Source of the DNA: an uncultured Methanomicrobiaceae archaeon
GTDB lineage: Archaea; Halobacteriota; Methanomicrobia; Methanomicrobiales; Methanoculleaceae
Direction: 5' to 3'
Length of the DNA stretch: 64,000 bases
Assembly: GCA_963826525.1 (NCBI GenBank)
Contig: CAWGXH010000004.1
Span: 96,001 to 160,000, forward strand
The notes beneath the pieces were generated by a model. The model saw only the letters and a program-made list of their open reading frames with translations. It did no database searches and was not told the origin of the DNA. Numbering within the stretch: position 1 is the stretch's first letter; every line of letters begins with the position of its first letter. A program made the position numbers and the translations under genes. This document shows positions 18,917 to 58,124 of this stretch, piece after piece.

Positions 18917-20052
18917 TCAACTCACCACGTTCTGCAGTACGCGTGCAATATAAGCGATCTCAGGGCGTTGCAGGGTTGGATACATCGGCAGGCTGAGTAC
19001 CTTACCGGCAACCTCCTCGGTTACAGGCAGTTCTCCTCCGGTATACCCAAATATATCCCGGAAGTAGCGTGTCAGGTGAACCGGCGGGAAGATGCACACT
19101 TTTCGACGCTATATTGAATTCCTGCAGTTGTCTCATGATGTCATCCCTGTTCGCGCCGGCCCCGTCGATCAGGATCGAGAAGAGTTGATGCACGTTGAGG
19201 CACCCCAGAGGGGTCTTCGGAACCTCGATCCGGCTGATTCCCGATAGTTCATGCCGGTAGTACTCAGGCACAGCGACGTCTCATCTCGATGATCTTGTCG
19301 ACGCTCTCAAGCTGGCTCAACCCCAGGCATGCAAGAATATCTGGCATGCGGAAATTAAATCCCAGGGCAACATAGTCCCCACATTCTGTCGAGGAGAAGT
19401 AGTTGCCCTGTTCCTGTCGCCCGTGAGACCGGATCAGCCTCAGCCGTTCATCGAGGTCCTTTGAGTCGGTGACGATGGCGCCCCCTTCTCCGGTCGTGAT
19501 AATCTTGTTCTGGCAGAAGCTGAACATAGCCAGATCGCCGAATGTTCCAACTCCTGTGCCCCGGACCCTGGCGCCGAATGCCTCTGCCGCATCCTCGAAG
19601 AGAAGGAGGTTATGGTCTGTGGCGATCTCCCGCAGCGCTTCTATTGAGCACGGGCATCCGCCGTAGTGAACAGGTAGGATAGCTCGTGTATTTCGGGTGA
19701 TCTTTTCCTGCACATCTTCCGGATCCAGACCCAGATCCTCTCGCTTGATATCGGCAAAGATCGGTTTTGCACCCACCATGAGCGGTGCATTTGCAGTCGC
19801 AATGAAGGTGAACGAGGGGACGATGACTTCGTCCCCTGCATGGATCCTGTTGGCCAGAAGTCCGGCATGAAGCGCAGAAGTGCCGGAGTTGAACGTCGTG
19901 CAGTATTTCACGCCGATATAATCGCCGATGGCTCTTTCAAACCTCTCGACATCAGGACCGGTTGTCCAGAACATGCCCCGTCTAATTACATCTCTGATCC
20001 TGTCGATATCATCGTCGTTCCAGAAGATCTGAAAAAGCGGTACCTGCATCAT
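18917..20052 (-). CDS. DegT/DnrJ/EryC1/StrS sugar aminotransferase (frameshifted)
   Basis: NSGTSALH, VPSFTFIAT, EDAAEA, FSFCQNKIITTGEGG, LSLPMYP. Confidence 0.92.
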
Positions 20053-20240
20053 ATGACCCCCATTTATGTGGTTACCTCGATCGTTCATCATCACGAGCCC
20101 GGTTGTTGTCCTTGAATGATAGTATTGTGGCTCTTCCAGGAGGCCCGGCACACCATCCGACGCGCCCGGGAAAGGTCAGGATCGCTCTCCAGCCGGTTCC
20201 CGTGCCGTCGGATGGTGTGCCGGGAGTTCTGTGTCCCTCG

Positions 20241-21193
20241 CTACCGTGGCTTTGTCCATTCTTCAAACCGGTAATTCTTATACCAGTTGACGAGTCTGCG
20301 AGGGCCTGGTCGATCGAGTATCGGGTCGCCAGCCCAGTTTATTTGCCTGTGAAATATCAGCGATGAGCCTCTGAACCTCTCCGGGTCTTGGATCTACGTG
20401 AACTGGCTCTATGTCTCTCTCGCAGAGATCGGCGATCTTCTTTGCCAGATCAAGGATTGGATATCAGCCCCCGATCCGAAGTTGATGGGCTCCGTAAGTA
20501 TCCCATCATAGTTGAGAAGGATATCGTACGCCCTCACAATATCATGGATATATGTGTAGTCTCTTGTCTGACTCCCGTCGCCGTAAATGATCGGCGGGCT
20601 CCCGTTCAGCACTCTCCGGATGAAGATGGAGATGACCCCGCCGTACCGGAATCTTTCTGGTGCGGCCCATAGATGTTGAACGGCCGGATGACGGTGATGT
20701 TCATCCCGTAGGTGCAGATATACGCGTAGCACATCCGGTCTGCAGCGATTTTGCTTGCGCCATACGGATGCGGTGCGTTTAACGGATGTGCTTCATCCAT
20801 CGGGGAGTACTGGGCTGAGCCATAGACCTCGCTTGTGGAGGCGTGGATCACTTTTTCAACATCATACATCCGGGCCGCCTCAAGCACTTTCTGCGTCCCG
20901 AGCACGTTTGTTTCATAGGTGAGCTTCGGTTCGATAATTGAGCGGTCGACATGAATCTGTGCTGCCAGGTGAACGACAGCATCCACATCCCGCATCAATT
21001 TCTCCAGGAGATCGAAGTTTTTAATATCTCCAGAAATCAGTTTGAAGTTCCGGAATTTGAGCAAGTGCCGGATATAGGTCAGGTTGCCGTTTAAGAAGTT
21101 GTCCAAGCACAGGACGGTATCCCCCCGCTTCGTATACGTGTCACAGAGATGCGACCCGACAAAGCCCGCACCGCCGGTGATCAGTAACTTCAT
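20241..21193 (-). CDS. NAD-dependent NDP-sugar epimerase/dehydratase (frameshifted)
   Basis: ITGGAGFVGSH, HLAAQIHVDRS, STSEVYG, YGASK. Confidence 0.9.
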
Positions 21194-22299: not shown

Positions 22300-22821
22300 C
22301 CCGCCCCCTCTCCCGTATTATGACATATAGTCGTTGCGGTGATGTGTCAGGGATGCCCAGACTCAGTAGTTCGCTAATTTGAGAGCCGGCATACTCTTTG
22401 CCGAATCAGGAAACCAGCATAAAAACGAAAGATCTATAACAGTTGCAGGCGTCCCCTCATGCCTTTTACCCAAAGGAAGAAAACGACCTGCAGAAAGAAT
22501 AGCGACCTCAAACCGAAAGAATGTTGTGTTCATGTCGTCGCGGCACTGGATCAGCACCTGACGATCCCGATCCAGGGACGGCTCACCCAAACAGACCTGT
22601 TTCAGGCCCTGGGCGGCATGGCCGCGATGAATCAATCCATTCACTCGATCACCGGGTTTTTGGAGCACGTACCCTGTGAGACGTCGTTTCACTACCATCT
22701 GAAGAAACTCAATATGGGCGAGTTAGAGCAGAAGAGCACTGCTATCCTCACCCACTTCGTGCACCACGTCCTGAAGCCCGGGAAGTCGTATCAGTTCGCG
22801 ATCGACTACACCAACGATCCG

Positions 22822-24933
22822 GTGCGACAAGAAGTTGTATCGGGGATTGCGGGTCAATCCGCCACCCTATCCGTTTGGGGTGTCCCTACTGTGGCATGCG
22901 CTCTTGGTTAACAGGAGGGTGTGAAGCCCACGGGACAACGCGGAGAAGAGCAGAACCCTGATCTGCTCCATCTGCAAGGGAAACGACGCCAGGGAGAAGC
23001 AAACGCTGAATCATCGAAAGGATCGTTATGGTGAACAAGTGAAAACAGGGTGTTACACTTGGGCCAAAATGGCAAGGAATCAGGCTATTCCGTTAGGATC
23101 ACGGAACAGCAAACGGACGAGCGGTTCCCGGTCTAAAGATGGCTCCTACAGCGTCATTGAGTATCCTCGATACAGAACTTGGAAACCCGTATCCGCCCCT
23201 CGGAAGAGGTATGGAGGTCGTGAGGCCGATAAACGGCGGAGACGGAACAGGATGTCCCAAGAAGCGAATGCCTGCCGGTAACAGGCAGGATAGAGGCAGT
23301 TGCCTCGACCTGAAAGGGTGCTGACGTGGGACAGGTGTTTCACAGCAAAGAAGGGAGGTATACCCGTGAAAGTATGTCATTCAACGACGCCGAACGGCGA
23401 GAAGCATACTGACAAGGAACTCGCCCGGCAATGGAACTCCATTGACTGGGAGAAAGTGGGCTCCGATGTTAACGGGCTACAGACCCGGATTGCAAAGGCA
23501 ACGCAAGAAAGAAAATGGAATCTGGTAAAACGACTCAGTTACCTGCTGACACATTCGCATGCGGCAAAATTGCTATGCAGTACGGATTGTCACGCAGAAC
23601 AAGGGAAAACGCACCCCGGGTGTCGACGGCGAACTCTGGACAACCGCATCGGCGAAGATGCGAGCCGCCCTCAGTCTCACCGATAAACAATACCGGGCGC
23701 AGCCACTCCGCCGTGTCTACATCCCGAAACCTGGGAAGACGACGAAACGTCCTATCTCAATCCCGACAATGTACGACCGGGCAATGCAGGCGCTCTACGC
23801 ACTGGCTCTCCAGCCGATAGCAGAGACAACGGCAGACCCCCGCTCGTTTGGGTTTCGGCTCTTCCGGTGTGCGCAGGATGCGTCACGCTATGCATTCACC
23901 TGCCTCATGAGGCAAGGCTCGACACCGTGGATCCTGGAGGGCGACATCAAAGGGTGTTTCGACGCCATCGCCCACGACTGGCTCCGGGAGAATATCCCGA
24001 TGGACCGGTCGGTGATGACCCAATTCCTGAAAGCCGGGTTCGTCTTCGAGACGACGCTCTACCCTACGGACAAAGGCACGCCCCAGGGCGGGATAATCTC
24101 TCCCATCCTTGCCAACATGACGCTTGACGGGATGAGAAGATTCTCGCTGCACGCCTTCCAAAGACGAACGTGCACTTCATCCGCTACGCGGATGATTTCC
24201 TGGTCACGGCTCCGACGAAGGAGATAGCAGAAGAAGCCCGGGATGTCCTCCGGGAGTTCCTCGCAGAACGGGGTCTCGAACTATCCGGGGAGAAGACGGT
24301 GATTACCCATATTGACGACGGGTTCGACTTTCTTGGATACAACTTCCGGAAATACGAAGGAACGCTCCTGGTAAAGCCGTCCCGGAAGTCAGTCAAGGCA
24401 ATCTCGGAAAAGATCAAGGCGATCGTCAAAAAGGCACGAGCCTGGACACAAGACCGCCTGATCATGGCCTTGAACCCGGTTATCCGGGGCTGGTCAAATT
24501 ACCACCGCCACAACGTGGCCAAGGGGACATTCGGGTTTCTTGACCGCTATGTATGGGCAGTTACTTGGAAGTGGGGCAAACACCGACACCCCAATAAAGG
24601 GCACAAATGGATAGCCCGGAGATACTGGCACCCGGAAGGGAACAGAAACTGGGTATTTCGGACAGAAGAGAACACTCTCCTGTTGTTCGAAGACATAACC
24701 ATCCGGAGACACACTATCCCCAGACTGACTGCAAACCCCTATCTCGACAGGAACTACTTCCTTGACAGAAGAGAACGCATGAAGAGACAGACTCCGTGGA
24801 TTCAAACCAAACTTTCTTTCTTCGCTCTGCCGCCCGAAAATCGGGTAGTGGAATGCATGAGCGTACTGCGGTGAAAGCCGCACGGTGCGTTCTTGGAAGG
24901 GGGGAAGGTGGTAACATCTTCCCCCTATTCGAC
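22822..24933 (+). mobile_element. Group II intron (probably IIB / chloroplast-like class)
   Basis: 5' GTGCG; 34-nt domain V GAGCGTACTGCGGTGAAAGCCGCACGGTGCGTTC at 24859-24892; domain VI hairpin; 3' end ...CTATTCGAC; removal restores the host frame. Confidence 0.95.
23366..24874 (+). CDS. ltrA: Group II intron reverse transcriptase/maturase (frameshifted, no HNH domain)
   Basis: TPGVDG, RRVYIPK, EGDIKGCFD, GTPQGGIISPILAN, RYADDF, LNPVIRGWSNY; GGAGGT RBS before GTG. Confidence 0.93.
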
Positions 24934-26198
24934 TACTACGGAACGACCTCTGGGGAGAACGAACCCTTTATCATCCGAAGCAAACGCAAGAAATCGACGA
25001 ACGAGTTCTACTCCTACGTCACCCTCTACGTGACCACCAAAGACCGGTAGATGACGCTGGCCGTGTACCCGGTGCGTCAGGGAATCTCAAAGGTCGGCTA
25101 CATCGCCCGGTGCCTTGACCGGATCGCCGAGCTTGGTCTTGTCATCGAAGCACTCTGCCTTGACCGGGAGTTCTACACCCGGAAGGTCTTCGGGTTTCTG
25201 ACCCGGACGCAGGTGCCGTTCATCGTTCCTGTCAGGAAACACGGCAAACGGATGAAAGAACTGCTCCAGGGGACGCAGTCCCGATATGCCGAATACCGGA
25301 TGAAAGCCAAACCACCACTTCTTCTGACTATCGCGGTTGCGGTGAAGTATGCCAAGGGAAAGCGAGGTAAGCATGGCGTCGAAAACCTGGGATACGTCAC
25401 CGGCAATCTCCAATGGAGCCCACATCGTGTGCACCAGACCTACCGATCCCGGTTCTCGATCGAATCGTCCTACCGGATGCGCAACCAGGTGAAACCAAGG
25501 ACGAGCACGAAGAATCCGGTGATCCGCTATCTCTATGCTATCATCTCTTTCCTTCTGAAGAACGTCTGGACCGCTTTATTGTGGAAGCACTTCTCTCCGG
25601 TGAAACAGGGGCCGAAAACCATCGAAATGCGCGTCTTCCGATTCGACTGCTTCATTGTCATAATCTGGGAAGCGATCCGAGCATCAATGGGGATGGTAAA
25701 AGGAATCCCCGTGCTAAGGCACCCGGTTTAGAGAAAGGAGTGTGGAGCGAAGGAGAACCGAAGAAGCGAGGAGGAGAAGTTAGCGAAGTACTGGGACTGG
25801 CGGTTTACCGGGATACATGTCGAAAATGTGCAGCGTGACGTCGGCTGCTGCACCGTCGGCCATTTCATCAAGAGAAGTGCATCATCGGGAGCACCGATGC
25901 CCGTGAAGATCGTCCGGATACCCTCCCCCGTACGGTGGTATTCCGGGGGGTCAGTCTCTGGAAAGAGCGCTTGCATCGTAGAAGGTCCTTTGACACTTCA
26001 ATCCCGCTCGATAGTCATTTGTCGCTAAAGCGGTTGTACTATAAATCTGCCCTGAATTCAGCCTCGATTTGAGGAAGTATCCCGCCGCCGTCCCGGTTTG
26101 CACTCCAGCATATTGATGTTCTGGGTCACTGTTTTCTGATGCCCTTGAAGGCAGATCGCCCTGCCCTGCACCTGACAATACAGTGCCTCCGGGCTCCT

Positions 26199-41184: not shown

Positions 41185-41258
41185 GGGCTTGTGGTCTAGC
41201 TGGTCATGACGTCGCCCTTACACGGCGAAGATCTCCGGTTCGAATCCGGACAGGCCCA
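41185..41258 (+). tRNA. tRNA-Val(TAC)
   Basis: GGGCTTG/CAGGCCC acceptor stem, anticodon arm TCGCC-CTTACAC-GGCGA, T-arm GGTTCGAATCC. Confidence 0.96.
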
Positions 41259-41435
41259 CTCCTTTTGCGATATTAAGACTAAAGAGGGCTCTATTCCGTC
41301 AATCAAAGCCCGAATAAGCGCATCTACCAGCTTAGAGGCGTTATCGGTCATCGTTTTGAGATATTCGGCTGATTCTTCCGATAGTGTTAGGTGGACTCTT
41401 GGGCGTTTACGCCCGTAATGATTCTCATTTGTCAT
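41196..41435 (-). pseudogene. Small RHH-like ORF reading antisense into tRNA-Val; probable int(N) remnant of an SSV-type integrase
   Basis: AGGAG RBS, RPRVHLTLSEESAEYL ribbon-helix-helix-like pattern, lower GC than flanks, frame continues through the tRNA 3' half. Confidence 0.55.
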
Positions 41436-41463
41436 TTGCTCCTTTCTCCTTAATTTTTTCTAC

Positions 41464-41498
41464 TGTCCGGACAGTTGTGTTTGTGTCCGGACAGTTGT
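41464..41498. promoter_or_regulatory. Direct repeat pair TGTCCGGACAGTTGT with palindromic core
   Basis: Exact 15-bp copies at 41464 and 41484 (20-bp period), about 30 bp upstream of the RHH-like ORF. Confidence 0.6.
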
Positions 41499-41586
41499 AA
41501 GGGAGGGTATGGGAGCGCAACTTTATGAAACGGGTATGAGTGCATCCGGAGGCCGGTGCAGCGGTGGCGCCGCGGAGCGTCCCTGT

Positions 41587-42793
41587 TCACAAACCGGGCA
41601 GCATGACAATCACACCTTCAGGACAGACATAGGAACAGAGGCTGCACCCGTCACACTGGTCTGCATCGATCACGACATGCCGATCCGCTATCGAGATGGC
41701 GTGGTACCCCCCGTCGCGGCAGGCCGTTACACAACGGCCGCAGGACGTGCATCGTTCCGGAAATCCCATGGTTGCGAAGCGGTATTCATTCCGGGAGAGG
41801 GATGCATGCGTTCCGATGCGGGAAAGGGCACGCCCTTTGAGTGCCCCGACACCCGTAAAGTGCTTGTCTGCAAGATATCCCGACAAACCCGCATTCATCT
41901 CACGGACGATACCTGCCCCTCCCCACATGACCGCCGTACAGATCTGGACTGCCGATGCCCCGGCCGCTATGTACTCGGCAGCGTCCTGCCAGCGGGAGAT
42001 CCCGCCGATCCCCATGAGCGGGATCGGAAGTTCCCGGGCAATCTGCGAGATCACCCGGAGCCCAATGGGTTTTACCGCGGGCCCGGAGTATCCCCCGTAG
42101 GTGCTCGACCCGGCAACCGAGGGGAGAGGTTCAAGCGTCTCAAGGTCGATGCCCATGAGGCACTGGACCGTGTTGATGGCTGAAAGGATATCGGCCCCGC
42201 CAGCCACCGCAGCCTGCGCAACAGGCAGGATATCCGTCACGTTGGGAGTGAGCTTGACGATCAGAGGAACCGTGGCGACCTGCCGCACTGCACGCGTCAC
42301 CCCGCCGACGAGATCGGCGTGCTGCCCGATGGCCGCACCGACCCCCCGTTCCGGCATCCCGTGGGGACAGGAGACGTTCAGCTCGATCGCATCCGCCCCT
42401 GCATCCTGCACGCTGCAGGCAAGTTCCTGCCATTCCGTAGGGTCGGGCGAGGCCATGATGCTCGCAATCAGAACCCGATCCGGATACTCCTTTCTGATGG
42501 CGGCGATCTCCAAAGTCCAGTACCGATTCATCCTTCTTGCTCAAGAGTTCGATGTTCTCAAAACCAAGGAGTCCGGAATGCTCGTCTTTCCAGACCGCAA
42601 AACGGGGCGAGACATCCAGAATGTCCATCGTGTCCGGGACAATGGTCTTGGTGACCGCACCCGCCCAGCCAAGCCGGAACGCATGCCGGATCTGCTCGCC
42701 CGATGCAGTCGGCGGACCCGAGGAAAGCAGGAACGGGTTCTTGAACGTAAGCGGACCAACGGTAGTTTCGAGGGGAAGGTCGGGTGCGGACAT
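41587..42793 (-). CDS. preA: Dihydropyrimidine dehydrogenase subunit PreA (frameshifted)
   Basis: FKNPFLLSSGPPT, ELNVSCPHGM, KLTPNVTDI, GGYSGPAVKPI, two C-terminal 4Fe-4S motifs. Confidence 0.9.
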
Positions 42794-42868
42794 GTGATGT
42801 ATCCTTATCTGAATTGCGCCGGAATACCATATGGTTGTTATTATCAGGCAAGGGCTATCCCCGGCACG

Positions 42869-43735
42869 TCAAAATTTGCCCTCTCCGTGCAGCCACCAGT
42901 CGATGAGTGCCCGGGAGATGCTCATCGTGGACGGCAGGGAAGGAAGGTGGTCGCGGGTGAACCATCCCGCAGCTTCGATCTCGTTATCGTCGACGATCAG
43001 ATCGCCGCCCGCATAGTCGGCAATAAAGCCGATCATCAGGGAGTCAGGGAATGGCCAGGGCTCGCTGCCGAAGTAGCGGATGTTTTCGACCGCTATCCCA
43101 ACCTCTTCTTTGACTTCGCGGCGGACAGCGTGCTCGAGATTCTCACCCGGCTCGACGAACCCGGCGATGATGCTGTACATGCCGGGCGGGAACCGGGGTG
43201 AACGGGCGAGCAGAATCCTCTCACCGTCTCTCACGAGGACGATGATGGCGGGTGAAAGCCGGGGATAGACGATCAGATTGCAGGCAGGACAGGCTTTCGC
43301 CCGTTCGGTGGCGACCGGCCGGGTCTTCGCTCCGCACCTCCCGCAGTACTGCGTCGTCCGGTCGAAATCGACTATCCGGACGGCAAGAGCGGCGATGGCG
43401 AGTTCATCCGCCGGAACCCTGCCGTAGAGGTCGCGCACTCCGCAGACCTCCATCCCCTCCGGGAGGGAACTCTCCGCCGCGGCCTCCACCACATAGCAGG
43501 GCACGGCGCCGCGATGGCCGAGGTACAGGGTCCGTTCCACCCGGCAGCCACCCGAGGCCGGATCTGCATGCAGAAAGACCTGTGGATATTCTTCCGCGGT
43601 AACGCAGAGATCCGATCCCCGGACGAGCACGAAGAGCGCTCCTCCCCCCGGTAGAACCTGTGGTTCCGGATACCGGGCCGTAAGTGTATCCGCAGAGAAT
43701 GCTCCGGTGTGAATGTGAGTGTCGATAGGCTGCAT
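42869..43735 (-). CDS. nudC: NAD(H) pyrophosphatase NudC
   Basis: YCGRCG zinc ribbon, YPRLSPAII, Nudix box AGFVEPGENLEHAVRREVKEE, SEPWPFPDS. Confidence 0.93.
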   Translation of the reverse strand: MQPIDTHIHTGAFSADTLTARYPEPQVLPGGGALFVLVRGSDLCVTAEEYPQVFLHADPASGGCRVERTLYLGHRGAVPCYVVEAAAESSLPEGMEVCGVRDLYGRVPADELAIAALAVRIVDFDRTTQYCGRCGAKTRPVATERAKACPACNLIVYPRLSPAIIVLVRDGERILLARSPRFPPGMYSIIAGFVEPGENLEHAVRREVKEEVGIAVENIRYFGSEPWPFPDSLMIGFIADYAGGDLIVDDNEIEAAGWFTRDHLPSLPSTMSISRALIDWWLHGEGKF

Positions 43736-43828
43736 AGGTATCTTCCGCCATAGAACGTGCTGCAGGGAGGGTCTATCGCCAGGGATATATGCTTTGGGCG
43801 AACGCTACCCTGCACACCGTTCCGTATA

Positions 43829-45022
43829 TCACCAGACCGGCATCAGCCCGGGATGGTCTCCCGTAATGCACCGCCCACCCCCGGGCGTCACCAGGAACGT
43901 ATTCTCGATGCCAACCATCCCGACACCGCGGATCCCTTTCTTCGGCTCGAGCGCGATGACCATCCCCTTCGAAAGAGGCTCGTCAAAACCCCTCGCAATG
44001 ACGGGCGTCTCGTCGATGAGCAGGCCTATTCCATGACCGAGGAACTTCACCTGCCGACTCCCGAATCCCATAAAATCTTTGAGAAACTCCGGGCTCTGCC
44101 CCTCCATAATCGTAGCATATATCTGCGAGGGCGTGATCCCCGGGCGGAGGAGCGACGCCATCTCATTCTGGATCGCAACGCAGATCCCGTGCTGCTCGAT
44201 GGCTTCATCCGGAATTGGTCTTCCGAACATGTAAGTCATCGTTTTGTCGGTATGGTAGCCGTCGACCCCGCACCCGATATCGGCAAAGACCAGGTCGCCG
44301 GCCTTCAGTCTTCGCTCCCGGCTCCCGAGGAGCGGCACTGCGGGGCTCATCCCGTAGTTCCCGCCCGGCCCGTCGAAACAGGTCGGGTAGATCGAACTCT
44401 CGCCGAACCCGATCTGTCCGACGGCAATCTCCGTATCGAACATACCGAAGCGTACAATGCCGTGATGCCCCTCCTCGACGAGGACGGAGTACAGTTCGGT
44501 CACGAACTCAAGTTCGGTCATCCCCTCCCGCAGGATGGCAGGTGCACGCTCTTCCAGCACCCGCCGGTGAATCCGTCCTGCCTGCTCCATGAGCGAGAGT
44601 TCGTACGCGCTCTTCACCTCCCGGACCCGCGCAACCTCCCGGTCGACGGATCTGACCTCGGTGAAGGGGAAGTGTTTCTGGAACCTCCGGAGATGCGCAA
44701 CCGGCAGAAGCTCCGTCTCCAGATATACGGCATCCGGACAGCGCCCATAGATCGCCGCTGCATCCCGGTAGCTGCTCATCGGTCGTATATCCGGGAAGAG
44801 CGATTCGTCGAGCGCCCGCTCGTAACTCCGGCGTACCCAGAAGACAGCCTCGCTATTCCTCGGTATCAGCAGCATCCCGTCCTGCATCGTACCGGTGAAG
44901 TAGTAGAGGCTGATCTTCCCGAAGAGCGCGATCAACTCCCATCCGGGATCGGTCAAATCCATCCGAAGCCTGAAACGATTCATCCGTTCTGCAAGTTCAC
45001 GGAAGGGGACTCTTCGGTGCAT
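43829..45022 (-). CDS. M24 Xaa-Pro peptidase family protein
   Basis: DIGCGVDGYHTD, FLGHGIGL, ALEPK, GIENTF. Confidence 0.9.
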   Translation of the reverse strand: MHRRVPFRELAERMNRFRLRMDLTDPGWELIALFGKISLYYFTGTMQDGMLLIPRNSEAVFWVRRSYERALDESLFPDIRPMSSYRDAAAIYGRCPDAVYLETELLPVAHLRRFQKHFPFTEVRSVDREVARVREVKSAYELSLMEQAGRIHRRVLEERAPAILREGMTELEFVTELYSVLVEEGHHGIVRFGMFDTEIAVGQIGFGESSIYPTCFDGPGGNYGMSPAVPLLGSRERRLKAGDLVFADIGCGVDGYHTDKTMTYMFGRPIPDEAIEQHGICVAIQNEMASLLRPGITPSQIYATIMEGQSPEFLKDFMGFGSRQVKFLGHGIGLLIDETPVIARGFDEPLSKGMVIALEPKKGIRGVGMVGIENTFLVTPGGGRCITGDHPGLMPVW

Positions 45023-45246
45023 AGCAGATGTTGTATGCCGTCGGTATTTACCGGTTGCGAGAGCCCGCTCTCAACCGAATGCACCGCAAAAGGGATCGGA
45101 GCGTGAAGAACTCACTGTATCGGGAGAGGAGAAGGCGGAAGCGGTTTCCTGATCAGGTAGCATACACGCATCCTGATCAGTCCGGCAGAGAGGTTCACCG
45201 AAAAGCAGATGACAGTGGGCGGCATCCACTGCACCGGATCGAAGTG

Positions 45247-45906
45247 ATGCCGATGCAACGAAGGTTTTCCGCCTCCGCAATCGTTATCCTCATGCTCCTC
45301 GTCGTTCCCACGGGCGCCGGGTGTATGCAGGGCGCAAATATCCCCGCAGAGGACCCACCGGTACCTCCAGGAACAGGACCGTATATAGACCACCACATTC
45401 ATCGGCACGGCGAGGCGCTGGAAGAAGGGTATCCGATAATTGCCATAGACTTTCCCACATATACCTTCGACAACGAGACCCGGACGCTTTCGGGGTTGCT
45501 GACGTTCGAGGTCGACCAATCGCTGATCGCTGTCTACGGTAGCGGCCTCTCCCTCTCGGGCGATGCAGGTATCGGTGCGGCAACGGGCCTCTCGGGAGTA
45601 TATAGTATCCCCTATGAGGCCGACGACAGCCTGGTCATCCGGAACGTAACACCAAACGGGACGGCCTGGATAGAGTACCAGAACACCACCATCACCCTTG
45701 CAGCGAACGAAACCTGGGAGAACATCTCCGTGCGGGTCGAGGAGGAACCCACGTATGACGGCATCGAGACCGGGCGGCAGGGCCATCTGAAGATAACCGA
45801 GACCGACACGATCACAAACTACGGTCTCCTTGAGAGAGAAGAGATCGAGAACACCACCAGCCTCGCGGCAGCACCGGAGACTGTCACCCCGAGGAAGCAT
45901 GTCTGA
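45247..45906 (+). CDS. Hypothetical secreted protein / lipoprotein
   Basis: Hydrophobic leader ending GAGC; acidic, Thr-rich, N-x-T sequons. Confidence 0.65.
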   Translation: MPMQRRFSASAIVILMLLVVPTGAGCMQGANIPAEDPPVPPGTGPYIDHHIHRHGEALEEGYPIIAIDFPTYTFDNETRTLSGLLTFEVDQSLIAVYGSGLSLSGDAGIGAATGLSGVYSIPYEADDSLVIRNVTPNGTAWIEYQNTTITLAANETWENISVRVEEEPTYDGIETGRQGHLKITETDTITNYGLLEREEIENTTSLAAAPETVTPRKHV

Positions 45907-46330
45907 TCGGCCGCCACCCCACGATGAAGCCGTCCTCATGAAGTGGATGCGGCTTGAGATCGGCAAAATTAATGAAGGGCTCGTCGCAGAGAGGAAGACC
46001 CTCCGGAGGCTGCTTGAAGAAGAGACGCCGTCATCGACGACCAAGAGCGGCCAGAAATACATCTTCGATGCCGATGTCGTAAGAAGGCTTGGGGAGCAGC
46101 TGCCGCCTGACCTCCACCGCAGGCTCAAACTCCCGATCTTCTTCTACTTCGACATGAACGTCGGGGGCAGCTGTTTTCTCACCGAGGAGGCTGCAATGGA
46201 GGCACTCCAGCATCTCGGCGAGATCAGCCATCTCCGCAGAATGCGGGACGGAAGACTCTGGTTCGCAAAACCGATCGCGTACGACCTGACGAACCGCTAC
46301 CCGACGGTCATCCAGATAGTCATGCGGTGA
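45899..46330 (+). CDS. DUF61-family archaeal protein
   Basis: EIGKINEGL...RKTLRRLLEEE...LKLPI pattern. Confidence 0.7.
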   Translation: MSDRPPPHDEAVLMKWMRLEIGKINEGLVAERKTLRRLLEEETPSSTTKSGQKYIFDADVVRRLGEQLPPDLHRRLKLPIFFYFDMNVGGSCFLTEEAAMEALQHLGEISHLRRMRDGRLWFAKPIAYDLTNRYPTVIQIVMR

Positions 46331-46378
46331 GCCTTCCGATGGCGAGGACGACTACCGCTACGGAGAAAGGAGAACGCT

Positions 46379-46888
46379 ATGGTGCAGTCGAACAGCGGTA
46401 TGGCGCTTGTGGGCATCGTCATCCTCTTTAGCCTGGTGCTTGCACTGGTCGTCATCGGCGGGGCGGTCTTCGAGACGCCGAAACCCGGCAGCTCCGATAC
46501 GACCGGGATCGAGCAGTTTTCCGGCGGAAACGGTACCGTGCCGGCTGAGATCAGCCACCAGGTCCAGGAGTCCTTCTCCCTCTTCGTATCACCGCAGACG
46601 GCAACCACGAGCCCCGGCGGAACCGTTCGCTATATGATACGCATCCAGCCGATGGGCGGGTTTGACGAGCCAGTCCACCTCACGGTATCAGCGACTGCGC
46701 TCGGCGGCGCCGTCAGCCGTGCATCCGATCTCGGAACGGTCGAACCGCCGTACCGGACGACCACCTACGACTTTCCGATTCCAGACCTCCCCCCGCTCGT
46801 CTCAGAGGCCACCGTCGATGCACGGGTAACCGCAACCGGCGGCGGTATGACCAGAACCGAGCAGGTGCAGCTCGTCATCAGGTCGTGA
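46379..46888 (+). CDS. Membrane-anchored Ig-like hypothetical protein
   Basis: AGGAG RBS, N-terminal TM, FSLFVSP...GFDEPVHL beta-sandwich pattern. Confidence 0.7.
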   Translation: MVQSNSGMALVGIVILFSLVLALVVIGGAVFETPKPGSSDTTGIEQFSGGNGTVPAEISHQVQESFSLFVSPQTATTSPGGTVRYMIRIQPMGGFDEPVHLTVSATALGGAVSRASDLGTVEPPYRTTTYDFPIPDLPPLVSEATVDARVTATGGGMTRTEQVQLVIRS

Positions 46889-47225
46889 ACGTGCAAACCC
46901 GGTGACGGCGGCACCACAGAAGAACGGTAAATGCAGTTGACCCACCTCGTCTTCACCCCGTACCAGCCCGGCGCACGTTCCGGATACTTTCACCATCTCA
47001 CCATCGGCGAGAGGATAGACGCTTCATGTAAGTTCGGCTCCGGGAGCAGATGCTTCCCACGGAGCATCTCCGGTACGTCGGTAATGCTCATAAGATTCTC
47101 TCAGAAATCGCGGATAAAACGGAGATCTCTCAGGCAGCCGACCAGCGATCACTGCATCCATACACCCCTACTGCCAGGACAGGAGGTATAGAGATGCCCG
47201 CCAACCACAGAGGCAATCAATAGAA

Positions 47226-47247
47226 CCCCTTTGTTTCCACTGGAAAC
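47226..47247 (-). promoter_or_regulatory. ORB (origin recognition box)-like element
   Basis: Minus strand reads GTTTCCAGTGGAAACAAAGGGG, matching the archaeal ORB consensus with G-string. Confidence 0.6.
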
Positions 47248-47325
47248 CATAGAGAACCCCAGAGCAGAGTCTCGGACAGGTGCCGAAGCCGGGCACCTAT
47301 TGTCCGTGCCCGTACCCCGACGCCA

Positions 47326-47742
47326 TCACGGCATTTCACCCTCGTGCACCGTAAACCACACAGGGTCACGGCAGTCCGGACGACCGCCGTAGTTAATGGT
47401 GATCTCCTCACCCTGCCGGATAGGGCGGCAGGCAATAATCCGGATGACGCCTTCCGTGTATACGAGGATGTGGTCGGCATTCGCCGTGTAGGAGTGATTA
47501 TATAAAGAGCCGTAGCCGAGTGCAATGGCAATCGCCTCTTCGTGCTCGCCCCAGGCAAAATAGTAGTCATAGAGCCCGGTCTTATCGATCTGCTCCTGTG
47601 CGGTTGCTCCGTCCAGCACGAGCACCGGACAGACTTCGATCACGTCACCGGGCCTGATATCCCGACCGGCAAAGACGCCCCGACCCCGCGAGTTCGTTTC
47701 AGCGATGTAGACGGCATCGGATGGAGAGATACTGCTGCTCAT
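47326..47742 (-). CDS. SET-domain protein-lysine methyltransferase
   Basis: GRGVFA, GSLYNHSYTAN, GEEITINYG. Confidence 0.9.
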   Translation of the reverse strand: MSSSISPSDAVYIAETNSRGRGVFAGRDIRPGDVIEVCPVLVLDGATAQEQIDKTGLYDYYFAWGEHEEAIAIALGYGSLYNHSYTANADHILVYTEGVIRIIACRPIRQGEEITINYGGRPDCRDPVWFTVHEGEMP

Positions 47743-47855
47743 GGTATTGAGAACCCGCATATCCCTCTGCAAAAGGAGATGCAGCATGGGAGTTCTGCAC
47801 CGGAGGTTATCAAGGTTTTCAGGACTGGCGCCCCCGGAGCATGGAGAAAAGAGTT

Positions 47856-48371
47856 TCAGTGCGGTTCCGGGATGAAGACCGGAACCCAGTACCCGGAACC
47901 GTCGGGGCTTGGCCGCGGAGCGAGGTATGCACTCAGGGTGCCCTCGACCTGGAGACAGGGTGTGGCGGACGCGGGGTCGGTCTCCCAGATCATATGCACC
48001 ACGCCCATTGTCGTTCCATTATTCTCTTTCAGCGGAGCGGCAACCGAGCAGAAGGTTTTGCCCCCGGAGACCATCCGGCCGGCACGCACCGCATCATGCT
48101 CGAGCGCCTCCCTGCAGAGCGTGCAGGTCTCCTCGATCATCGATGCAGGATACACCTCCGAGCATTGCTGCCCGGATGCCGATTCTCTCCCAACCTGCAG
48201 CAGCTCGGCACCTGCCTGGTTCAGGTAGGTGAGTCGAAGGTCCCTATCCATGGCAGTGATCGGAACAGGGAAGCATTCAAGTGCGCGCAGAACATGCCTG
48301 CCAAGCTGCTGCTGCAGCAATTCCTCTCCAATCGACTGTGATACGACAAAACTCCCGATGACCATCATCAT
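47856..48371 (-). CDS. Stand-alone PAS-domain protein
   Basis: GGAGGTGA RBS; ITAMDRDLRLTYLNQAG...GQQC PAS pattern. Confidence 0.7.
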   Translation of the reverse strand: MMMVIGSFVVSQSIGEELLQQQLGRHVLRALECFPVPITAMDRDLRLTYLNQAGAELLQVGRESASGQQCSEVYPASMIEETCTLCREALEHDAVRAGRMVSGGKTFCSVAAPLKENNGTTMGVVHMIWETDPASATPCLQVEGTLSAYLAPRPSPDGSGYWVPVFIPEPH

Positions 48372-49679
48372 GCAACATCACCTCCCAACGGATAACGGAA
48401 GCTGGGCATCCGTGATATAATAACACTGTGGTCGAAAGTGCATCCTGGAAATCACCATTATTGCCGCCGATTTGGCATTAAACTACATATAACGGGGATA
48501 AAAGAGCCAAGGGCAGTCTGTGAGGCAGCAGACGAAAACCGGCTCGCCCCGGCTTACCGCGGACCCCCGCAAATACCCTTCGTGGATAAAAGAGAACGCT
48601 CACGGCGATTTTGTGCAGATCTTCAGGGAGAAGAGGGTGAACTATCCCCGATATTGCATACGGAAGGATATTCCATTACCAGAGGGCATGCCAGACATCA
48701 TATATCTCTTTAGGACAATAGCGCGTCGGGGAGTATCAGACCGGCAGGAGCGGCGAAGAACCGGCGATCCGGGCGACCCGGTACACTCAGGGCCGCAAAC
48801 GACCATGTAGATCTCAGGAAAAACCAGGAAAGGGTGCGGCTTTCTGCCGCACCACGCTCCCGTGCCCTCCAGCGCTTCGGCAGAGAAAACGGCCGAGTGC
48901 TGCCCGCGACTCCCCGGACGGAAGATGTGCTTCCATGCTTGACCGTCACGGTCACGCTGCCTCGATTATCCGGCGGATACTGCGCATCCGTGACACGGGC
49001 GGTATTCATGAGGTCCTCGCCGGACGTCTCCGTAACCTCGGTGCGGCAGATGGAGTTTCATCCCCCACCCGGATCAGCTCGACCGAGGTCGCCCCGACCG
49101 GCGGTGCAAGAGCCACCGCCAACCCAATCAGCGTATGACCGTCAGTCCAGGTAGGATTTCTCCCATCAAATGCCTCATGATGTCGTCAAACAGTCGTTGC
49201 AACCCCCATCCAGCAGGAAAGGAGCACCGTGAGGTGAACATGGGATCCGTCGGTGAAAAATGGGGTGACTGAATGTCCCTGCCGGCCTTGAAACCGGCGA
49301 ATAGTGGAGAGTGTTCACGAGAACCTACTGTCGATGCTGATCACAATGCAGAACTCATGCAGATCCCGCAGTGAGCCCGGCGGAGCCATGTACCATGGCC
49401 TCGCTCGTACACTTCCCCCCGGAATGTAGTTACCCTGTAACAGGCACTGCCCACGTAACGCTTTTTTATATATAAACATATCGCACCAGTGAAGGGCAGC
49501 CGGCGTACCATGGGGCGATTCCCGCAATCAACCAGAGCCAACTATAAAAATGAGCATATATAAACCGACTGGTATGCTTCAGCAGATCCCGGTGCCGGCC
49601 GTTCCCGGAGAGGAAGAGGCGGAGCACATAGTACCGTTCACCCCTCTGGCTGATCGAAAGAATGTTCAGGGAGGAGAGC

Positions 49680-50615
49680 ATGTATCTCCCGATCACGAGG
49701 GATAACCATCAGAGAGATCATTTCGGCACGGAACCTCGAGAAGCGATTCGGCGACCTGATCGCCGTCGACGGAATCGACTTCGACGTTCGGGAAGGCGAG
49801 ATATTCGGATTTCTGGGCCTAACGGTGCGGGAAAGACCACGACGATGAAGATGATCCAGTGCATCTCTCCAAAGACCGCAGGGAGCCTCCATGTCTTCGG
49901 CATGGACGTGGAGAGACAACCACGGGAGATCAAGAGGATACTCGGCGTCGTGCCGCAGGAGAACAACCTCGACCCCGACTTTACCGCCTATCAGAATCTG
50001 CTGATTTATGCACGCTACTTCGGTATCCCAAAGAAAACGGCCGAAGAGCGGGCAGATGAACTCCTCGACTTTATGCAGCTTGGCGAGAAGCGCGACGTCC
50101 TGATCGACAGACTCTCGGGAGGGATGAAACGCCGTCTGATCATCGCCCGGGCGCTGGTCAACGATCCGAAACTGCTCATCCTTGATGAGCCGACGATCGG
50201 GCTCGACCCGCAGGCACGCCACCTCATCTGGGAAAAGCTCAAGCAGCTCCAGGCAGAGGGGAATACCCAGGTGATGACCACGCACTACCTGGATGAGGCG
50301 GCGAGACTCTGCGATCGCCTCGTCATCATGGACCATGGGAAGATCCTGGTGGAAGGGAGCCCGACGGAGCTCGTCAGGGAGCATGCAGGCACCGATATCG
50401 TCGAGGCGGAGCGGACTCCCGAGGTCCTTTCGTGTCTGGAGGCGGTCGGTGTTGCATTCGACGCGACCGGCGATGTCGTCCAGGTGCTGACGGACCGGCC
50501 GCACGAGGTCGTCAGGGCGCTCATGGAGTCGTGCAGCCATGAAAAAGTTACGGCACGCCCGGCAACCCTTGAGGACGTCTTCCTGAAACTGACCGGGCGA
50601 ACACTCAGGGAGTAG
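49680..50615 (+). CDS. ABC exporter ATP-binding subunit (NodI/DrrA-like), frameshifted near N-terminus
   Basis: GPNGAGKTT, LSGGMKRR, ILDEPTIGLDP, TTHYLDEA. Confidence 0.92.
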   Translation: MYLPITRDNHQRDHFGTEPREAIRRPDRRRRNRLRRSGRRDIRISGPNGAGKTTTMKMIQCISPKTAGSLHVFGMDVERQPREIKRILGVVPQENNLDPDFTAYQNLLIYARYFGIPKKTAEERADELLDFMQLGEKRDVLIDRLSGGMKRRLIIARALVNDPKLLILDEPTIGLDPQARHLIWEKLKQLQAEGNTQVMTTHYLDEAARLCDRLVIMDHGKILVEGSPTELVREHAGTDIVEAERTPEVLSCLEAVGVAFDATGDVVQVLTDRPHEVVRALMESCSHEKVTARPATLEDVFLKLTGRTLRE

Positions 50616-50621
50616 AGGGGT

Positions 50622-51404
50622 ATGGCATACTTCGGCCTTTCGCAGATAACGCGGGGAGCGTTCTCCGTATGGCGGAGAAACTGGGATGCGTTCATCAAGA
50701 CCTACCGGGTCAATTTCATCCCGCCGTTCGTCGAGCCCCTCCTCTACCTCCTCGCCCTCGGCTACGGCCTTGGAGCCTTCGTCGAGGCCATAGACGGCAT
50801 CCCGTATCCGCAGTTCATCGCACCGGCGCTGGTCTCCATCTCGGTGATGTACTCGGCCTTCTTCGAGTGCACCTACTCCTCCTTCGTCCGGATGTACTAC
50901 CAGAAGACCTTCGATGCAATCATCGCAACGCCAATCTCCATCGAGGACGTTATCACCGGCGAGATTCTCTGGGGTGCGACGAGGGGCACGATCTACGCAA
51001 CCCTGATGCTCCCGGTACTCATCGCTTTCGGGGTCGTCGATCTCCCCACATCGCTCCTGCTCATCCCCTTCGCGCTGCCCGCCGGGCTGCTCTTCGCGAG
51101 CATCGGGATGTGCTTCACCGCGATCACGCCGGGAATCGATGCGCTGAACTATCCGTCCTTCCTCTTCATCACCCCGATGTTCCTCTTCTCGGGAACATTC
51201 TTCCCGCTCAACATCCTGCCCGAAGCGCTCCAGTACTTCGCGTTCGGATTCCTGCCGCTCGCCAATGTGGTGAGCGTCAACAGGGCGATCACGCTCGCGG
51301 AGTTCTCCCCGCTCATCCTCTACAACCTGGTCTGGATCGCCGCGGTGACGGTACTCTTCTTCCTTATCGCCCTCCGCCTGATGCGAAGACGGCTGGTCAT
51401 ATGA
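50622..51404 (+). CDS. ABC-2 type permease (NodJ-like)
   Basis: EPLLYLLALGYG, FIAPAL, PMFLFSGTFFP. Confidence 0.92.
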   Translation: MAYFGLSQITRGAFSVWRRNWDAFIKTYRVNFIPPFVEPLLYLLALGYGLGAFVEAIDGIPYPQFIAPALVSISVMYSAFFECTYSSFVRMYYQKTFDAIIATPISIEDVITGEILWGATRGTIYATLMLPVLIAFGVVDLPTSLLLIPFALPAGLLFASIGMCFTAITPGIDALNYPSFLFITPMFLFSGTFFPLNILPEALQYFAFGFLPLANVVSVNRAITLAEFSPLILYNLVWIAAVTVLFFLIALRLMRRRLVI

Positions 51405-51469
51405 AGAGTATGGCGGCGGCGATAGCGATCGCTGCGGAGCCGATTAAAAAAGTAAACAGTGTACCGGAC

Positions 51470-51682
51470 TCAGTCACTCCGTTCTGCCGCGACGTAGGCG
51501 TCGTACATGCTGTAGAGCCAGACGAGGATGTAGAACGGGATACCGATGAGAATGGTCGACAGACCGCCGAAGATGACCGCAAGGGCAAAGAGCAGGATGG
51601 CTTTTAAGAGTTGTCCCGTGTAGAACTGACCGAGACCCGGGATAAAGAATGAGAGTATCACGGCGATGAGTGGTGATGCCAT
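51470..51682 (-). CDS. Small TM2-like membrane protein
   Basis: ILSFFIPGLGQFYTGQ...WLYSMYDAY. Confidence 0.8.
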   Translation of the reverse strand: MASPLIAVILSFFIPGLGQFYTGQLLKAILLFALAVIFGGLSTILIGIPFYILVWLYSMYDAYVAAERSD

Positions 51683-51937
51683 AGATAGACGTGTACTCTG
51701 CACCGGTATGAACGCTTCTCTCCGGTGCCACGAGCCGGATGCCGTGGCGACCTTCCGGAAAAGGCAGCCCGCACACCCGTTCGACGTTGCGCATCGGTAT
51801 CGGAGATCCGCAGAGTCCCAAAGGTCGGGCTTTTGTTCAGGAACTTTCGAAGAAGCGTTTACCCGTACGATGACGACACTCCGGTGCGGGGAGCGATGAA
51901 CATCACCTTCCGCATACGGAAGGAAAACAACGATAGG

Positions 51938-51948
51938 ATAAAAAAAAT
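51938..51948 (-). terminator. Oligo-T terminator of the CxxC-x17-CxxC array
   Basis: T8 run on the minus strand immediately after the stop of the last copy. Confidence 0.55.
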
Positions 51949-52125
51949 TTAGAATCTGGGTTTTCTGTGCTTGGGGAGGCAGTCACGGCAGTAGACGGGA
52001 CGGCCCTCGGTGGGCTTGAAGGGAACTTCGCACTCGACGCCGCAGTCGGCGCAGGTTGTCTTGTGGAACTCACGGGGACGGTCGTCGTAGGAACGGGGAC
52101 CGCGGCTGGGATATCTGTTATCCAT
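51949..52125 (-). CDS. CxxC-x17-CxxC domain protein, copy 1 (58 aa)
   Basis: MDNRYPSRGPRSYDDRPREFHKTTCADCGVECEVPFKPTEGRPVYCRDCLPKHRKPRF; GAGTGA RBS; below the ORF-track cutoff. Confidence 0.9.
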   Translation of the reverse strand: MDNRYPSRGPRSYDDRPREFHKTTCADCGVECEVPFKPTEGRPVYCRDCLPKHRKPRF

Positions 52126-52166
52126 TTTAAATCACTCTCGTATAGATTGAGTATTCAGGGGAGGTA

Positions 52167-52343
52167 TTAGAACCTCGGCTTTCTGTGCTTGGGGAGACAG
52201 TCACGGCAGTAGACGGGACGGCCCTCGGTGGGCTTGAAGGGAACTTCGCACTCGACGCCGCAGTCGGCGCAGGTTGTCTTGTGGAACTCACGGGGACGGT
52301 CGTCGTAGGAACGGGGACCGCGGCTGGGATATCTGTTATCCAT
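52167..52343 (-). CDS. CxxC-x17-CxxC domain protein, copy 2
   Basis: Same 58-aa protein, offset 218. Confidence 0.9.
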   Translation of the reverse strand: MDNRYPSRGPRSYDDRPREFHKTTCADCGVECEVPFKPTEGRPVYCRDCLPKHRKPRF

Positions 52344-52384
52344 TTTAAATCACTCTCGTATAGATTGAGTATTCAGGGGAGGTA

Positions 52385-52561
52385 TTAGAACCTCGGCTTT
52401 CTGTGCTTGGGGAGACAGTCACGGCAGTAGACGGGACGGCCCTCGGTGGGCTTGAAGGGAACTTCGCACTCGACGCCGCAGTCGGCGCAGGTTGTCTTGT
52501 GGAACTCACGGGGACGGTCGTCGTAGGAACGGGGACCGCGGCTGGGATATCTGTTATCCAT
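52385..52561 (-). CDS. CxxC-x17-CxxC domain protein, copy 3
   Basis: Identical to copy 2. Confidence 0.9.
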   Translation of the reverse strand: MDNRYPSRGPRSYDDRPREFHKTTCADCGVECEVPFKPTEGRPVYCRDCLPKHRKPRF

Positions 52562-52602
52562 TTTAAATCACTCTCGTATAGATTGAGTATTCAGGGGAGG
52601 TA

Positions 52603-52779
52603 TTAGAACCTCGGCTTTCTGTGCTTGGGGAGACAGTCACGGCAGTAGACGGGACGGCCCTCGGTGGGCTTGAAGGGAACTTCGCACTCGACTCCGCAGT
52701 CGGAACAGGTTGTTTTGTGGAACTCGCGGGGACGGTCGTCGTAGGAACGAGGACCGCGGCTAGGATATCTGTTATCCAT
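52603..52779 (-). CDS. CxxC-x17-CxxC domain protein, copy 4
   Basis: 58 aa, CSDC variant, several synonymous changes. Confidence 0.9.
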   Translation of the reverse strand: MDNRYPSRGPRSYDDRPREFHKTTCSDCGVECEVPFKPTEGRPVYCRDCLPKHRKPRF

Positions 52780-52820
52780 TTTAAATCACTCACTTAGGAT
52801 GGTTTTACTCAAAAGAGGAC

Positions 52821-52997
52821 TTAGAACCTCGGCTTTCTGTACTTGGGGAGGCAATCCCGGCAGTAAACTGGACGGCCCTCGGTGGGCTTGAAGGGAACTT
52901 CGCACTCGGCGCCGCAGTCGGAACAGACTGTTTTATGGAACTCGCGGGGACGGTCGTCGTAGGAACGGGGACCCCGGCTCTGATATCTCTCATTCAT
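52821..52997 (-). CDS. CxxC-x17-CxxC domain protein, copy 5 (promoter-proximal)
   Basis: MNERYQSRGPRSYDDRPREFHKTVCSDCGAECEVPFKPTEGRPVYCRDCLPKYRKPRF. Confidence 0.9.
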   Translation of the reverse strand: MNERYQSRGPRSYDDRPREFHKTVCSDCGAECEVPFKPTEGRPVYCRDCLPKYRKPRF

Positions 52998-53648
52998 GGA
53001 TTCTACCATGCAGATAATCTGCACACATAGAGGTACGCACAAGGTTAAATAGGTATGCTCACGAGGGACCTCTCCCGGACGTGACCGGCGTGCTCTCTGT
53101 CCGGAGCCTCCATGTTCCGTCCGACTCATCGAGCAGATCCGAAACATATCGGGGGAGAGAGGATCTCCGCGGATTGAAGCACCTCTCTACGGGGTGCCGC
53201 CGATCAGCTCCGCAATGAAAACCGGCTCGGGAGCAGAGGTGCTGCCCTGCTAATCGCGTGAGGGATGGATCTTTCCCTCCCGGCAGAGGGCTTTCCGGAG
53301 GACCCCATCACTCCGATCCCGTGATGGAGCATCACAGCTCCGGGGAGAGTATCCGAATCACGCTGGCGGGCAGGGATTTTTTACCGGGATTGTTTGTCGG
53401 CATCCGGATCACCATCACGGACGGTATGCTGCTTCGAGGGGATATGCGACAGGCGAGGCATGGGAGTGTAACAGAGCGAGATTTGCCGACTTTGCGCGAT
53501 GCAGCACTCCCGGAAGACAGAATGCTTTATATTCATACTCTCTGACTCATTGATCTGCAACGCATGGCAGCTTCAAGAGCGATCTCTTCTTGTATCCGGC
53601 ATCCAGCCGAGATCTCCCCGAATTACTGAGTGAACCGAGGGGCGACGA

Positions 53649-57106: not shown

Positions 57107-57109
57107 ACC

Positions 57110-57137: not shown

Positions 57138-57165
57138 GTTTTTCAGCGTGCATACTAGATCAGAC

Positions 57166-58071: not shown

Positions 58072-58124
58072 TCCCGCTCCCGAACTTTTTTTATCGTGCG
58101 ATGCACTTCGATACCGATCAATCA

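Follow-up and report, generated by a model that had tools for sequence, protein, structure and literature searches.

How does a group II intron come to lie within the transposase gene of an archaeal insertion sequence (IS), and did it home there, arrive with its host or get placed there by a faulty assembly? The question is raised by a 64,000-nucleotide stretch (the window) of contig CAWGXH010000004.1 from an uncultured Methanomicrobiaceae archaeon (GCA_963826525.1), a Methanoculleus-like methanogen whose genome is a metagenome-assembled genome (MAG) of 16 contigs. Positions 22822–24933 of the window interrupt the transposase gene of an ISH3-family element, and on the evidence assembled here they very probably constitute a mobile group II intron that homes into ISH3-family transposase genes.

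An intron in an ISH3 transposase gene

The intron lies on the forward strand and is 2112 nt long, a length divisible by 3; its full-length relatives are 87–93% identical to it. It begins at 22822 with GTGCGACAAG and finishes at 24933 with CTATTCGAC, and the conserved ends of group II introns, GUGYG and AY, are both present, as GTGCG at 22822–22826 and as the GAC that closes at 24933. Our Rfam cmscan of both strands of the full window, at the gathering-score threshold, returned three matches in total, one to a tRNA and two to group II introns. The domain I part is matched by group-II-D1D4-7 (RF02012) at 22863–23016 on the forward strand, over the full model (1–151) and with 60.3 bits against a cut-off of 34 (E = 6.2e-10), and domains V and VI by Intron_gpII (RF00029) at 24857–24933, with 47.6 bits against a cut-off of 40 (E = 3.1e-06). 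Together with folding, the latter match places domain V at 24859–24892 as a 34-nt hairpin with an AGC triad, a 2-nt bulge and a GAAA loop, and domain VI at 24895–24930 with an unpaired adenosine, A24927, 7 nt before the 3' end (both on the forward strand). Comparison of the 5' part of the ribozyme (22822–23400, ≈580 nt) with six relatives reveals one substitution private to the window (23045) and no indels, and the ribozyme of this intron appears well preserved.

Domain IV holds the gene for a reverse transcriptase (RT)/maturase, recognized by Pfam RVT_N, RVT_1 and GIIM and by NCBIfam TIGR04416, with a YADD motif at 24185–24196. The protein presumably starts at the GTG at 23366, which is preceded by GGGAGGT, and it is read in three successive pieces on the forward strand. 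The first (23366–23575) carries RVT_N (62.5 bits) and loses its frame at an extra base at 23575, the second (23576–24133) carries RT domains (RVT_1, 84.5 bits; TIGR04416, 196.8 bits), and the third (24134–24874) carries YADD, the maturase/X domain and a C-terminal tail (RVT_1, 43.4 bits; GIIM, 80.3 bits; TIGR04416, 126.2 bits). Both TIGR04416 scores fall below the cut-off of 300 because the frame is split; the uninterrupted protein of a relative, L033, which is 87% identical to the window pieces, scores 334.9. A Pfam search of the intron protein found no HNH or endonuclease family at E ≤ 0.01. An earlier note on this DNA, made from the sequence alone, had described a complete group II intron at this place. 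The boundaries, domains V and VI and the YADD RT/maturase are all as described there, and the cmscan that it recommended does match Intron_gpII; as assembled, the ribozyme is complete and the intron protein is not.

The exons on either side are pieces of one ISH3 transposase. Exon 1 (22459–22821, forward strand) has 121 codons ending in AIDYTNDP, is 82–85% identical to uninterrupted Methanoculleus copies and matches positions 3–78 of the profile NF033541 with 43.4 bits; exon 2 (24934–25731, forward strand) starts with YYG and matches positions 116–297 from 25051 onward with 172.5 bits. Because the gene is split, these pieces stay under the NF033541 cut-off of 225, which uninterrupted ISH3 relatives, 82–89% identical, pass with scores of 275.7 and 269.5. 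Joining CCG (Pro) at 22819–22821 to TAC TAC GGA from 24934 restores AIDYTNDP|YYG, and the precise insertion proposed in the earlier note is thereby confirmed, in the sense strand of the gene. The intron sits five codons past an invariant aspartate, which on its motif is taken to be the first residue of the Asp-Asp-Glu (DDE) set. D116, D198 and E298 are invariant in seven of seven aligned ISH3 transposase relatives and are the candidate DDE residues, a catalytic role that is suggested by motif only and that we assigned with what we take to be an IS4-like Y-2-R-3-E motif. Pfam returned no match for a full-length relative transposase and only a sub-threshold one, to DDE_Tnp_1, for exon 2; sequence and profile searches of the PDB with the ISH3 transposase gave no meaningful match. 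With the intron inserted in sense orientation, only spliced mRNA can yield the transposase. Such a dependence on splicing, part of the earlier proposal, follows logically for intact copies; in the window, the spliced mRNA would still stop at codon 160.

Intron-free alleles of this site with the joined sequence, whose existence mattered to the earlier proposal, are present both in relatives and in the same genome. With the C-terminal piece of the transposase as query, 23 loci were found (in Methanoculleus, Methanoregulaceae, Methanosarcinaceae and two oddly binned MAG contigs), 16 of which include the insertion site; one begins exactly there, so that both sides are visible in 15. All 15 are uninterrupted and read GAYCCN|TACTAYGG across the site, and three of them carry the identical sequence ACCAACGATCCG|TACTACGG. 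Within the genome itself, an ISH3 fragment with 85% identity (C3:494633–494900) crosses the empty site and then ends in unrelated sequence.

Recurrent occupancy and target recognition

The same nest recurs in other public contigs. A degenerate pattern across the 5' junction matched at 14 places, two in species-representative genomes and 12 in metagenomes. At seven of these (L026, L029, L030, L032, L033, L035 and L037), ISH3 exon 1 is followed by this intron; the other seven lack the intron protein and were set aside as chance matches. L030 and L037 are one locus in two samples, as are L032 and L035. With the window included, the left flanks represent five distinct contexts, the L026 contig being too short to show a flank. 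The intron protein frame is open in L026 and L033 (all 506 codons covered) and in L029 (all 394), and L035 has one frame break. Of the 15 ISH3 sites reached through the transposase search, none is occupied; the seven occupied contigs were reached through the junction pattern. Two short contigs with Methanoculleus-like ISH3 sequence have bacterial labels, L026 (with the intron) being binned as Candidatus Omnitrophota and L015 as Bacteroidetes; this is probably mis-binning, with transfer as the alternative.

Such recurrence bears directly on whether repeat misassembly joined an intron to the two halves of an IS, as might be feared of a MAG that comes in 16 contigs and contains many small errors. 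The 5' junction is found in the seven independent public contigs, and a contig from an RNA library (X15 record 9, 22792–23337) crosses it as well; a second contig (X15 record 13) passes the 3' end of the intron by 10 nt, to 24943. The exon pairings described below are also obeyed at both junctions, and we regard an artefact as effectively refuted. The two X15 contigs come from a screen of sequencing runs for sampled words of 22300–25900, of which no run contained more than 15%; in runs X1, X15, X16 and X17, matching contigs came only from relatives that are 88–99% identical.

The introns in the occupied copies are more alike than the ISs that hold them. Among these copies, introns are 91.6–100% identical and the 5' parts of the host ISs 62–99%; the window shares 91.6–97.7% with the others in the intron and 76.6–81.8% in the IS 5' part. 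L029 and L033, which have different flanks, carry identical introns (100% over 1674 nt) in IS 5' parts that are 96.1% identical (458 nt). The nearest relative of the window IS is an empty copy, L007 (87%), and a maximum-likelihood IS tree scatters the occupied copies among empty ones, with four occupancy changes on the best tree and three or four in bootstraps. From these comparisons, we conclude that the diverged ISH3 copies were probably invaded separately by the intron.

A different history would have the intron enter ISH3 once, after which the composite of IS and intron transposed as a unit to other loci. The host IS is indeed bounded as a mobile element. It spans 22364–25793, a composite of 3.43 kb with the intron and of 1318 bp without it, and has a left terminal inverted repeat, CAGTAGTTCGCTAA, at 22364–22377 (forward strand), where similarity to other copies begins and beyond which the flanks diverge, and a right one at 25780–25793 (reverse strand; TTAGCGAAGTACTG as read on the forward strand), which agrees with the left repeat at 13 of 14 positions. 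A target-site duplication surrounds it, AGACT at 22359–22363 on the left and GGACT at 25794–25798 on the right, alike at four of five positions. Duplications of 5 bp at the equivalent ends are perfect in four of seven two-ended relatives (L004, L011, L015 and L016) and mismatched in L003, L005 and L006. These ends, the five different contexts and the compatibility of a single origin with the well-supported branches of the IS tree all speak for joint transposition. It is nevertheless hard to reconcile with occupied IS 5' parts that differ by up to 38% around introns that differ by no more than 8.4%, with identical introns in L029 and L033 whose ISs differ at 3.9% of sites, and with a window IS that is closer to empty than to other occupied copies. 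We consider it very unlikely. The suggestion in the earlier note that the intron could travel with its IS stands as far as the presence of the terminal repeats and is otherwise unsupported for this copy, given a premature TAG, the lack of another full-length copy in the assembly and the absence of any sign of joint movement.

Separate invasion is also supported by the sequences through which the intron would recognize its target, the exon-binding sites (EBS) of the intron and the intron-binding sites (IBS) of the exon. On the forward strand of the window, IBS2 (CACCA, 22809–22813; positions −13 to −9) pairs with EBS2 (TGGTG, 23029–23033) at five of five positions, and IBS1 (GATCCG, 22816–22821; −6 to −1) with EBS1 (AGGATC, 23095–23100) at five of six. 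In all ten readable introns, EBS1/IBS1 forms 4–6 of six pairs and EBS2/IBS2 4–5 of five. EBS2 covaries with IBS2 in introns of differing targets, as EBS1 does with IBS1 in relatives. Two-sided changes are found in relatives with other targets (CGCCCC/GGGGCG, GTAGGA/TCCTAC and GGTGG/CCACC) as well as inside the ISH3-resident set (TGGTG/CACCA, TTGTG/TACGA and TCGTG/CACGA; GGGATC/GATCCC). Since EBS1 and EBS2 change in step with the target, ISH3 looks like the homing site of this lineage. The earlier idea that the intron homes into an IS is thus strengthened by the occupied site in seven other contigs, by introns more alike than their hosts and by this covariation. A scan of three introns for EBS3/IBS3 turned up no column in domain I that could pair with the first base of the 3' exon, the sole match lying within the exon. 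As a separate observation, the window EBS1 AGGATC would pair at six of six positions with GATCCT, the variant that an ISH3 copy from Methanosarcinaceae (L017) has at this site; the sequence that the intron actually occupies is GATCCG.

In the mechanism that we propose, the excised intron RNA and its bound protein would recognize ISH3 DNA by pairing EBS2 with CACCA and EBS1 with GATCCG, the homing site being the transposase codons I-D-Y-T-N-D-P|Y-Y-G. The RNA would then reverse-splice into the sense strand of ISH3 and be copied into DNA (retrohoming). Retrohoming by an endonuclease-less protein is, as far as sequences can tell, the most likely route, and endonuclease-less retrohoming in the cases covered by one account uses replication intermediates (PMC8914252). 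The window intron may splice and may be active at present.

Several observations weigh against homing into ISH3. The EBS1/IBS1 pairing of the window has an A·G mismatch at −1, the same pairing reaches only four of six positions in L026, L029 and L033, and EBS/IBS covariation would be expected from selection for splicing alone, too. The IS tree is weakly resolved, its well-supported branches forcing only one occupancy change, and part of the contrast between intron and IS could be due to constraint, with the ribozyme and RT evolving more slowly than the N-terminal region of the transposase, an objection that only the set of L029, L033 and L026, with almost identical introns, escapes. Recombination of DNA between IS copies is a possible alternative route of spread. 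The joined form 22821→24934 occurs in one X16 contig and a diverged joined form in one X17 contig; both belong to relatives in metagenomic libraries, and they give no verdict on splicing because empty ISH3 copies, whether as DNA or as transcripts, would look the same.

State of the window copy

The remaining points on that side concern the copy in the window. Its intron protein lies in three reading frames in the assembly, and its transposase has an in-frame TAG at 25048–25050, a stop at codon 160; the copy may be inert. These features invite the view that the nest is a dead fossil in which both partners are pseudogenes, with two frameshifts and a nonsense codon between them, neither splicing usefully nor moving. 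At the position of the TAG, all 16 relatives have a sense codon (CAG in 13, CAA in one and CGA in two), and on this account the window ISH3 does not encode an intact DDE transposase. Reading the codon as pyrrolysine was considered and ruled out, given that the genome has no PylS above the cut-off (a Methanosarcina control was positive) and that relatives mostly have CAG; the TAG is therefore a stop. Being a substitution, it is more likely to be real than the two indels. The imperfect target duplication, with four of five positions alike, points the same way, as does the content of the genome assembly, where the only full-length ISH3 is the occupied one and three fragments (C3:494633–494912, C4:286514–286932 and C4:1600111–1600491) make up the rest; the earlier description of a multicopy IS does not hold for this genome. 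A second intron of the genome, described below, likewise has a protein out of frame near its N-terminus.

The frameshifts are open to another explanation. In 2.1 kb of intron, there are exactly two indels relative to four of four close relatives, the extra base at 23575 and a G missing after 24133, and both are private to the window; contigs of relatives from three sequencing runs differ from the window in the same way. Privacy to one sequence accords with decay, but small errors are common in this assembly. Against the syntenic region of a genome of the same genus (85–88% identical), in which the affected genes are intact, 19.7 kb of the window (41300–61000) contains six 1-nt indels, at 42523, 54049, 55282, 55359, 56886 and 58728. 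That rate, ≈0.3 per kb, predicts ≈0.6 indels in the 2.1-kb intron by error alone, compared with the two seen. Because the assembly is rich in indels, those at 23575 and 24133 may be errors, and pseudogene calls in this genome depend on reads. Apart from both indels, the 1.5-kb frame of the intron protein is free of stops, and the single private substitution in the 5' part of the ribozyme amounts to little decay. We treat a dead fossil as a serious possibility, although not the one that we favor; a mobile intron that homes into ISH3 remains our preferred reading. Beside the IS, two reverse-strand genes are likewise split over two frames, an epimerase-like gene at 20409–21193 and a DegT-like aminotransferase gene at 19002–20151. 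The tRNA gene matched by Rfam lies elsewhere in the window, at 41185–41258 on the forward strand (66.5 bits).

Related introns and known systems

The second intron in the genome, at C4:575280–577386 (L002:1501–3607), is 72% identical to that of the window and has Rfam matches to D1D4-7 and to domains V and VI. Its open frame spans 465 codons, with the N-terminal ≈45 codons in a different frame, and its surroundings are apparently non-coding; a tRNA scan of its flanks found none. It has EBS/IBS pairs of its own, EBS1 GTAGGA pairing with TCCTAC at six of six positions. With its RT as protein query, 7982 of 7999 candidates scored matched at E ≤ 0.001; the best 120 of the 7982 are 65–88% identical, and the named ones among them belong to Methanoculleus and Methanoplanus.

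A sister intron of the window intron is found in Methanoculleus frigidifontis FWC-SCC1 (L013:1730–3849). The two share 87% identity across their whole length of 2.1 kb, and the sister has an open protein frame and the same Rfam matches, but it interrupts the istB gene of an IS21 element (IstB_IS21, PF01695, E = 5.3e-52) and its EBS1 and EBS2 are altered to suit the istB site, with six of six and five of five pairs. Read by eye, part of the IstB profile seems to be missing where its 3' exon should continue it. In Methanoculleus methanifontis, a 5' fragment of an intron (L008:1260–2223) begins right after the right terminal repeat of an ISH3 (1274) and is split at 1469|1470 by a 754-nt intron that lacks an open reading frame (ORF) and has its own domain I and V/VI matches, a twintron-like arrangement.

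These relatives would fit a wider reading, in which one archaeal clade of such introns is specialized on mobility genes, namely the catalytic-motif codons of ISH3 and istB of IS21. With a small number of altered EBS positions, it would change targets, and it would accompany these ISs through Methanoculleus and methanogens related to it. We offer this as an unlikely extension of the preferred reading.

Most of what is known of group II introns in archaea comes from Methanosarcina. Introns resident in ISs are well known in bacteria, where RmInt1, of class D, serves as the model, and RmInt1 in ISRm2011-2 of Sinorhizobium meliloti is the closest known case to ours. As the accounts of that system describe it, the natural homing site of RmInt1 lies in the transposase gene of ISRm2011-2, and the intron, which has no endonuclease domain, retrohomes into empty copies (PMC1802570; PMC3035460; PMC4238363). 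The ISH3 intron resembles it in having a homing site inside an IS transposase gene, an endonuclease-less protein and a host transposase that depends on splicing. It differs in its archaeal host, in an unrelated IS, in a nearest typed relative that is an archaeal CL1A intron, and in a site that falls where ISH3 conserves its catalytic motif, the occupied IS copies differing by 20–38% in DNA; moreover, RmInt1 has been tested experimentally, whereas the ISH3 intron is known from sequence.

RmInt1 is also a precedent for viewing the intron as a brake, one that splices poorly in place, limits the transposase and benefits the host by curbing the spread of ISH3 and IS21. Splicing of RmInt1 in vivo is put at 0.07%, and its authors interpret the intron as braking the IS (PMC3035460; PMC4238363). 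For ISH3, the sense-strand position just past the invariant aspartate, the residence of the sister intron in istB and the weak EBS1 pairing (4–5 of six) in four of seven readable ISH3-resident copies would suit such a role. Occupancy as rare as none of the 15 sites from the transposase search is unlike a selected brake, however, and an intron acting in its own interest, for which sites that are harmless, multicopy and horizontally mobile would be favorable, accounts equally well for the choice of mobile DNA. We think a brake distinctly improbable.

Among archaea, the nearest parallel is the nested introns of Methanosarcina acetivorans, where a review describes repeated homing into related introns and ORF-less derivatives (PMC4424553). 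Both cases involve archaeal introns that home into mobile DNA, and the nest beside the ISH3 end in L008 is comparable. The targets in M. acetivorans, in contrast, are group II introns without coding exons, whereas here the target is a protein-coding transposase gene whose reading frame splicing would restore. The best match of the window protein in a plasmid collection is the intron of Methanomethylovorans hollandica plasmid pMETHO01 (NC_019972; 57.4% protein identity over 95% of the query), whose host belongs to a different order, Methanosarcinales, and which Miura et al. typed as CL1A (PMC8919778, Supplementary file 1). The window protein is probably CL1A as well, an assignment made from this single best match rather than from a phylogeny, which counts against leaning on it. 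Six Methanospirillum hungatei introns are also typed CL1A in that survey, and its supplement lists none for Methanoculleus marisnigri (PMC8919778).

The survey reports group II introns in 28 of 296 archaeal genomes (≈9%), concentrated in the class Methanomicrobia and of types C, D, CL1A and CL1B (PMC8919778); the review names the archaeal lineages CL, D and E (PMC4424553), and a preprint describes group II introns in all archaeal supergroups, rare per genome (10.1101/2024.12.10.627823). The earlier note overrated the surprise of its find, because ≈9% of archaeal genomes have such introns and databases hold dozens of homologs from Methanoculleus and Methanomicrobiales. No account of an intron in ISH3 or of a Methanoculleus intron turned up in the literature covered, which did not extend to subscription journals; group II introns and ISH3 occur together in one paper, as incidental mentions.

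The pattern itself, in which one mobile element serves as the target of a retroelement, is a known one, of which this is an archaeal example. What appears to be new is the recurrent occupancy of ISH3 in public contigs, the EBS/IBS covariation and the sister intron in IS21 istB. As a single locus, the window is ordinary, with one copy, a transposase with a premature stop and an error-rich assembly; the lineage is worth a short study. IS-resident introns are joined here by archaeal ones whose homing site is defined, codes for protein and falls where an IS transposase is most conserved. A sister intron has been retargeted to an IS of another family, and the EBS/IBS changes between targets form a natural series for studying target switching. 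Methanoculleus-type methanogens are important in biogas reactors, and to our knowledge the Methanomicrobiales have no genetic tools; targetron-style genetics in the former could take this intron as a candidate starting point. Should the specialized clade be real, it would offer a ready-made, retargetable gene-disruption tool for Methanomicrobiales, and, if splicing is also as poor as in RmInt1, a natural and heritable silencer of ISs in methanogens.

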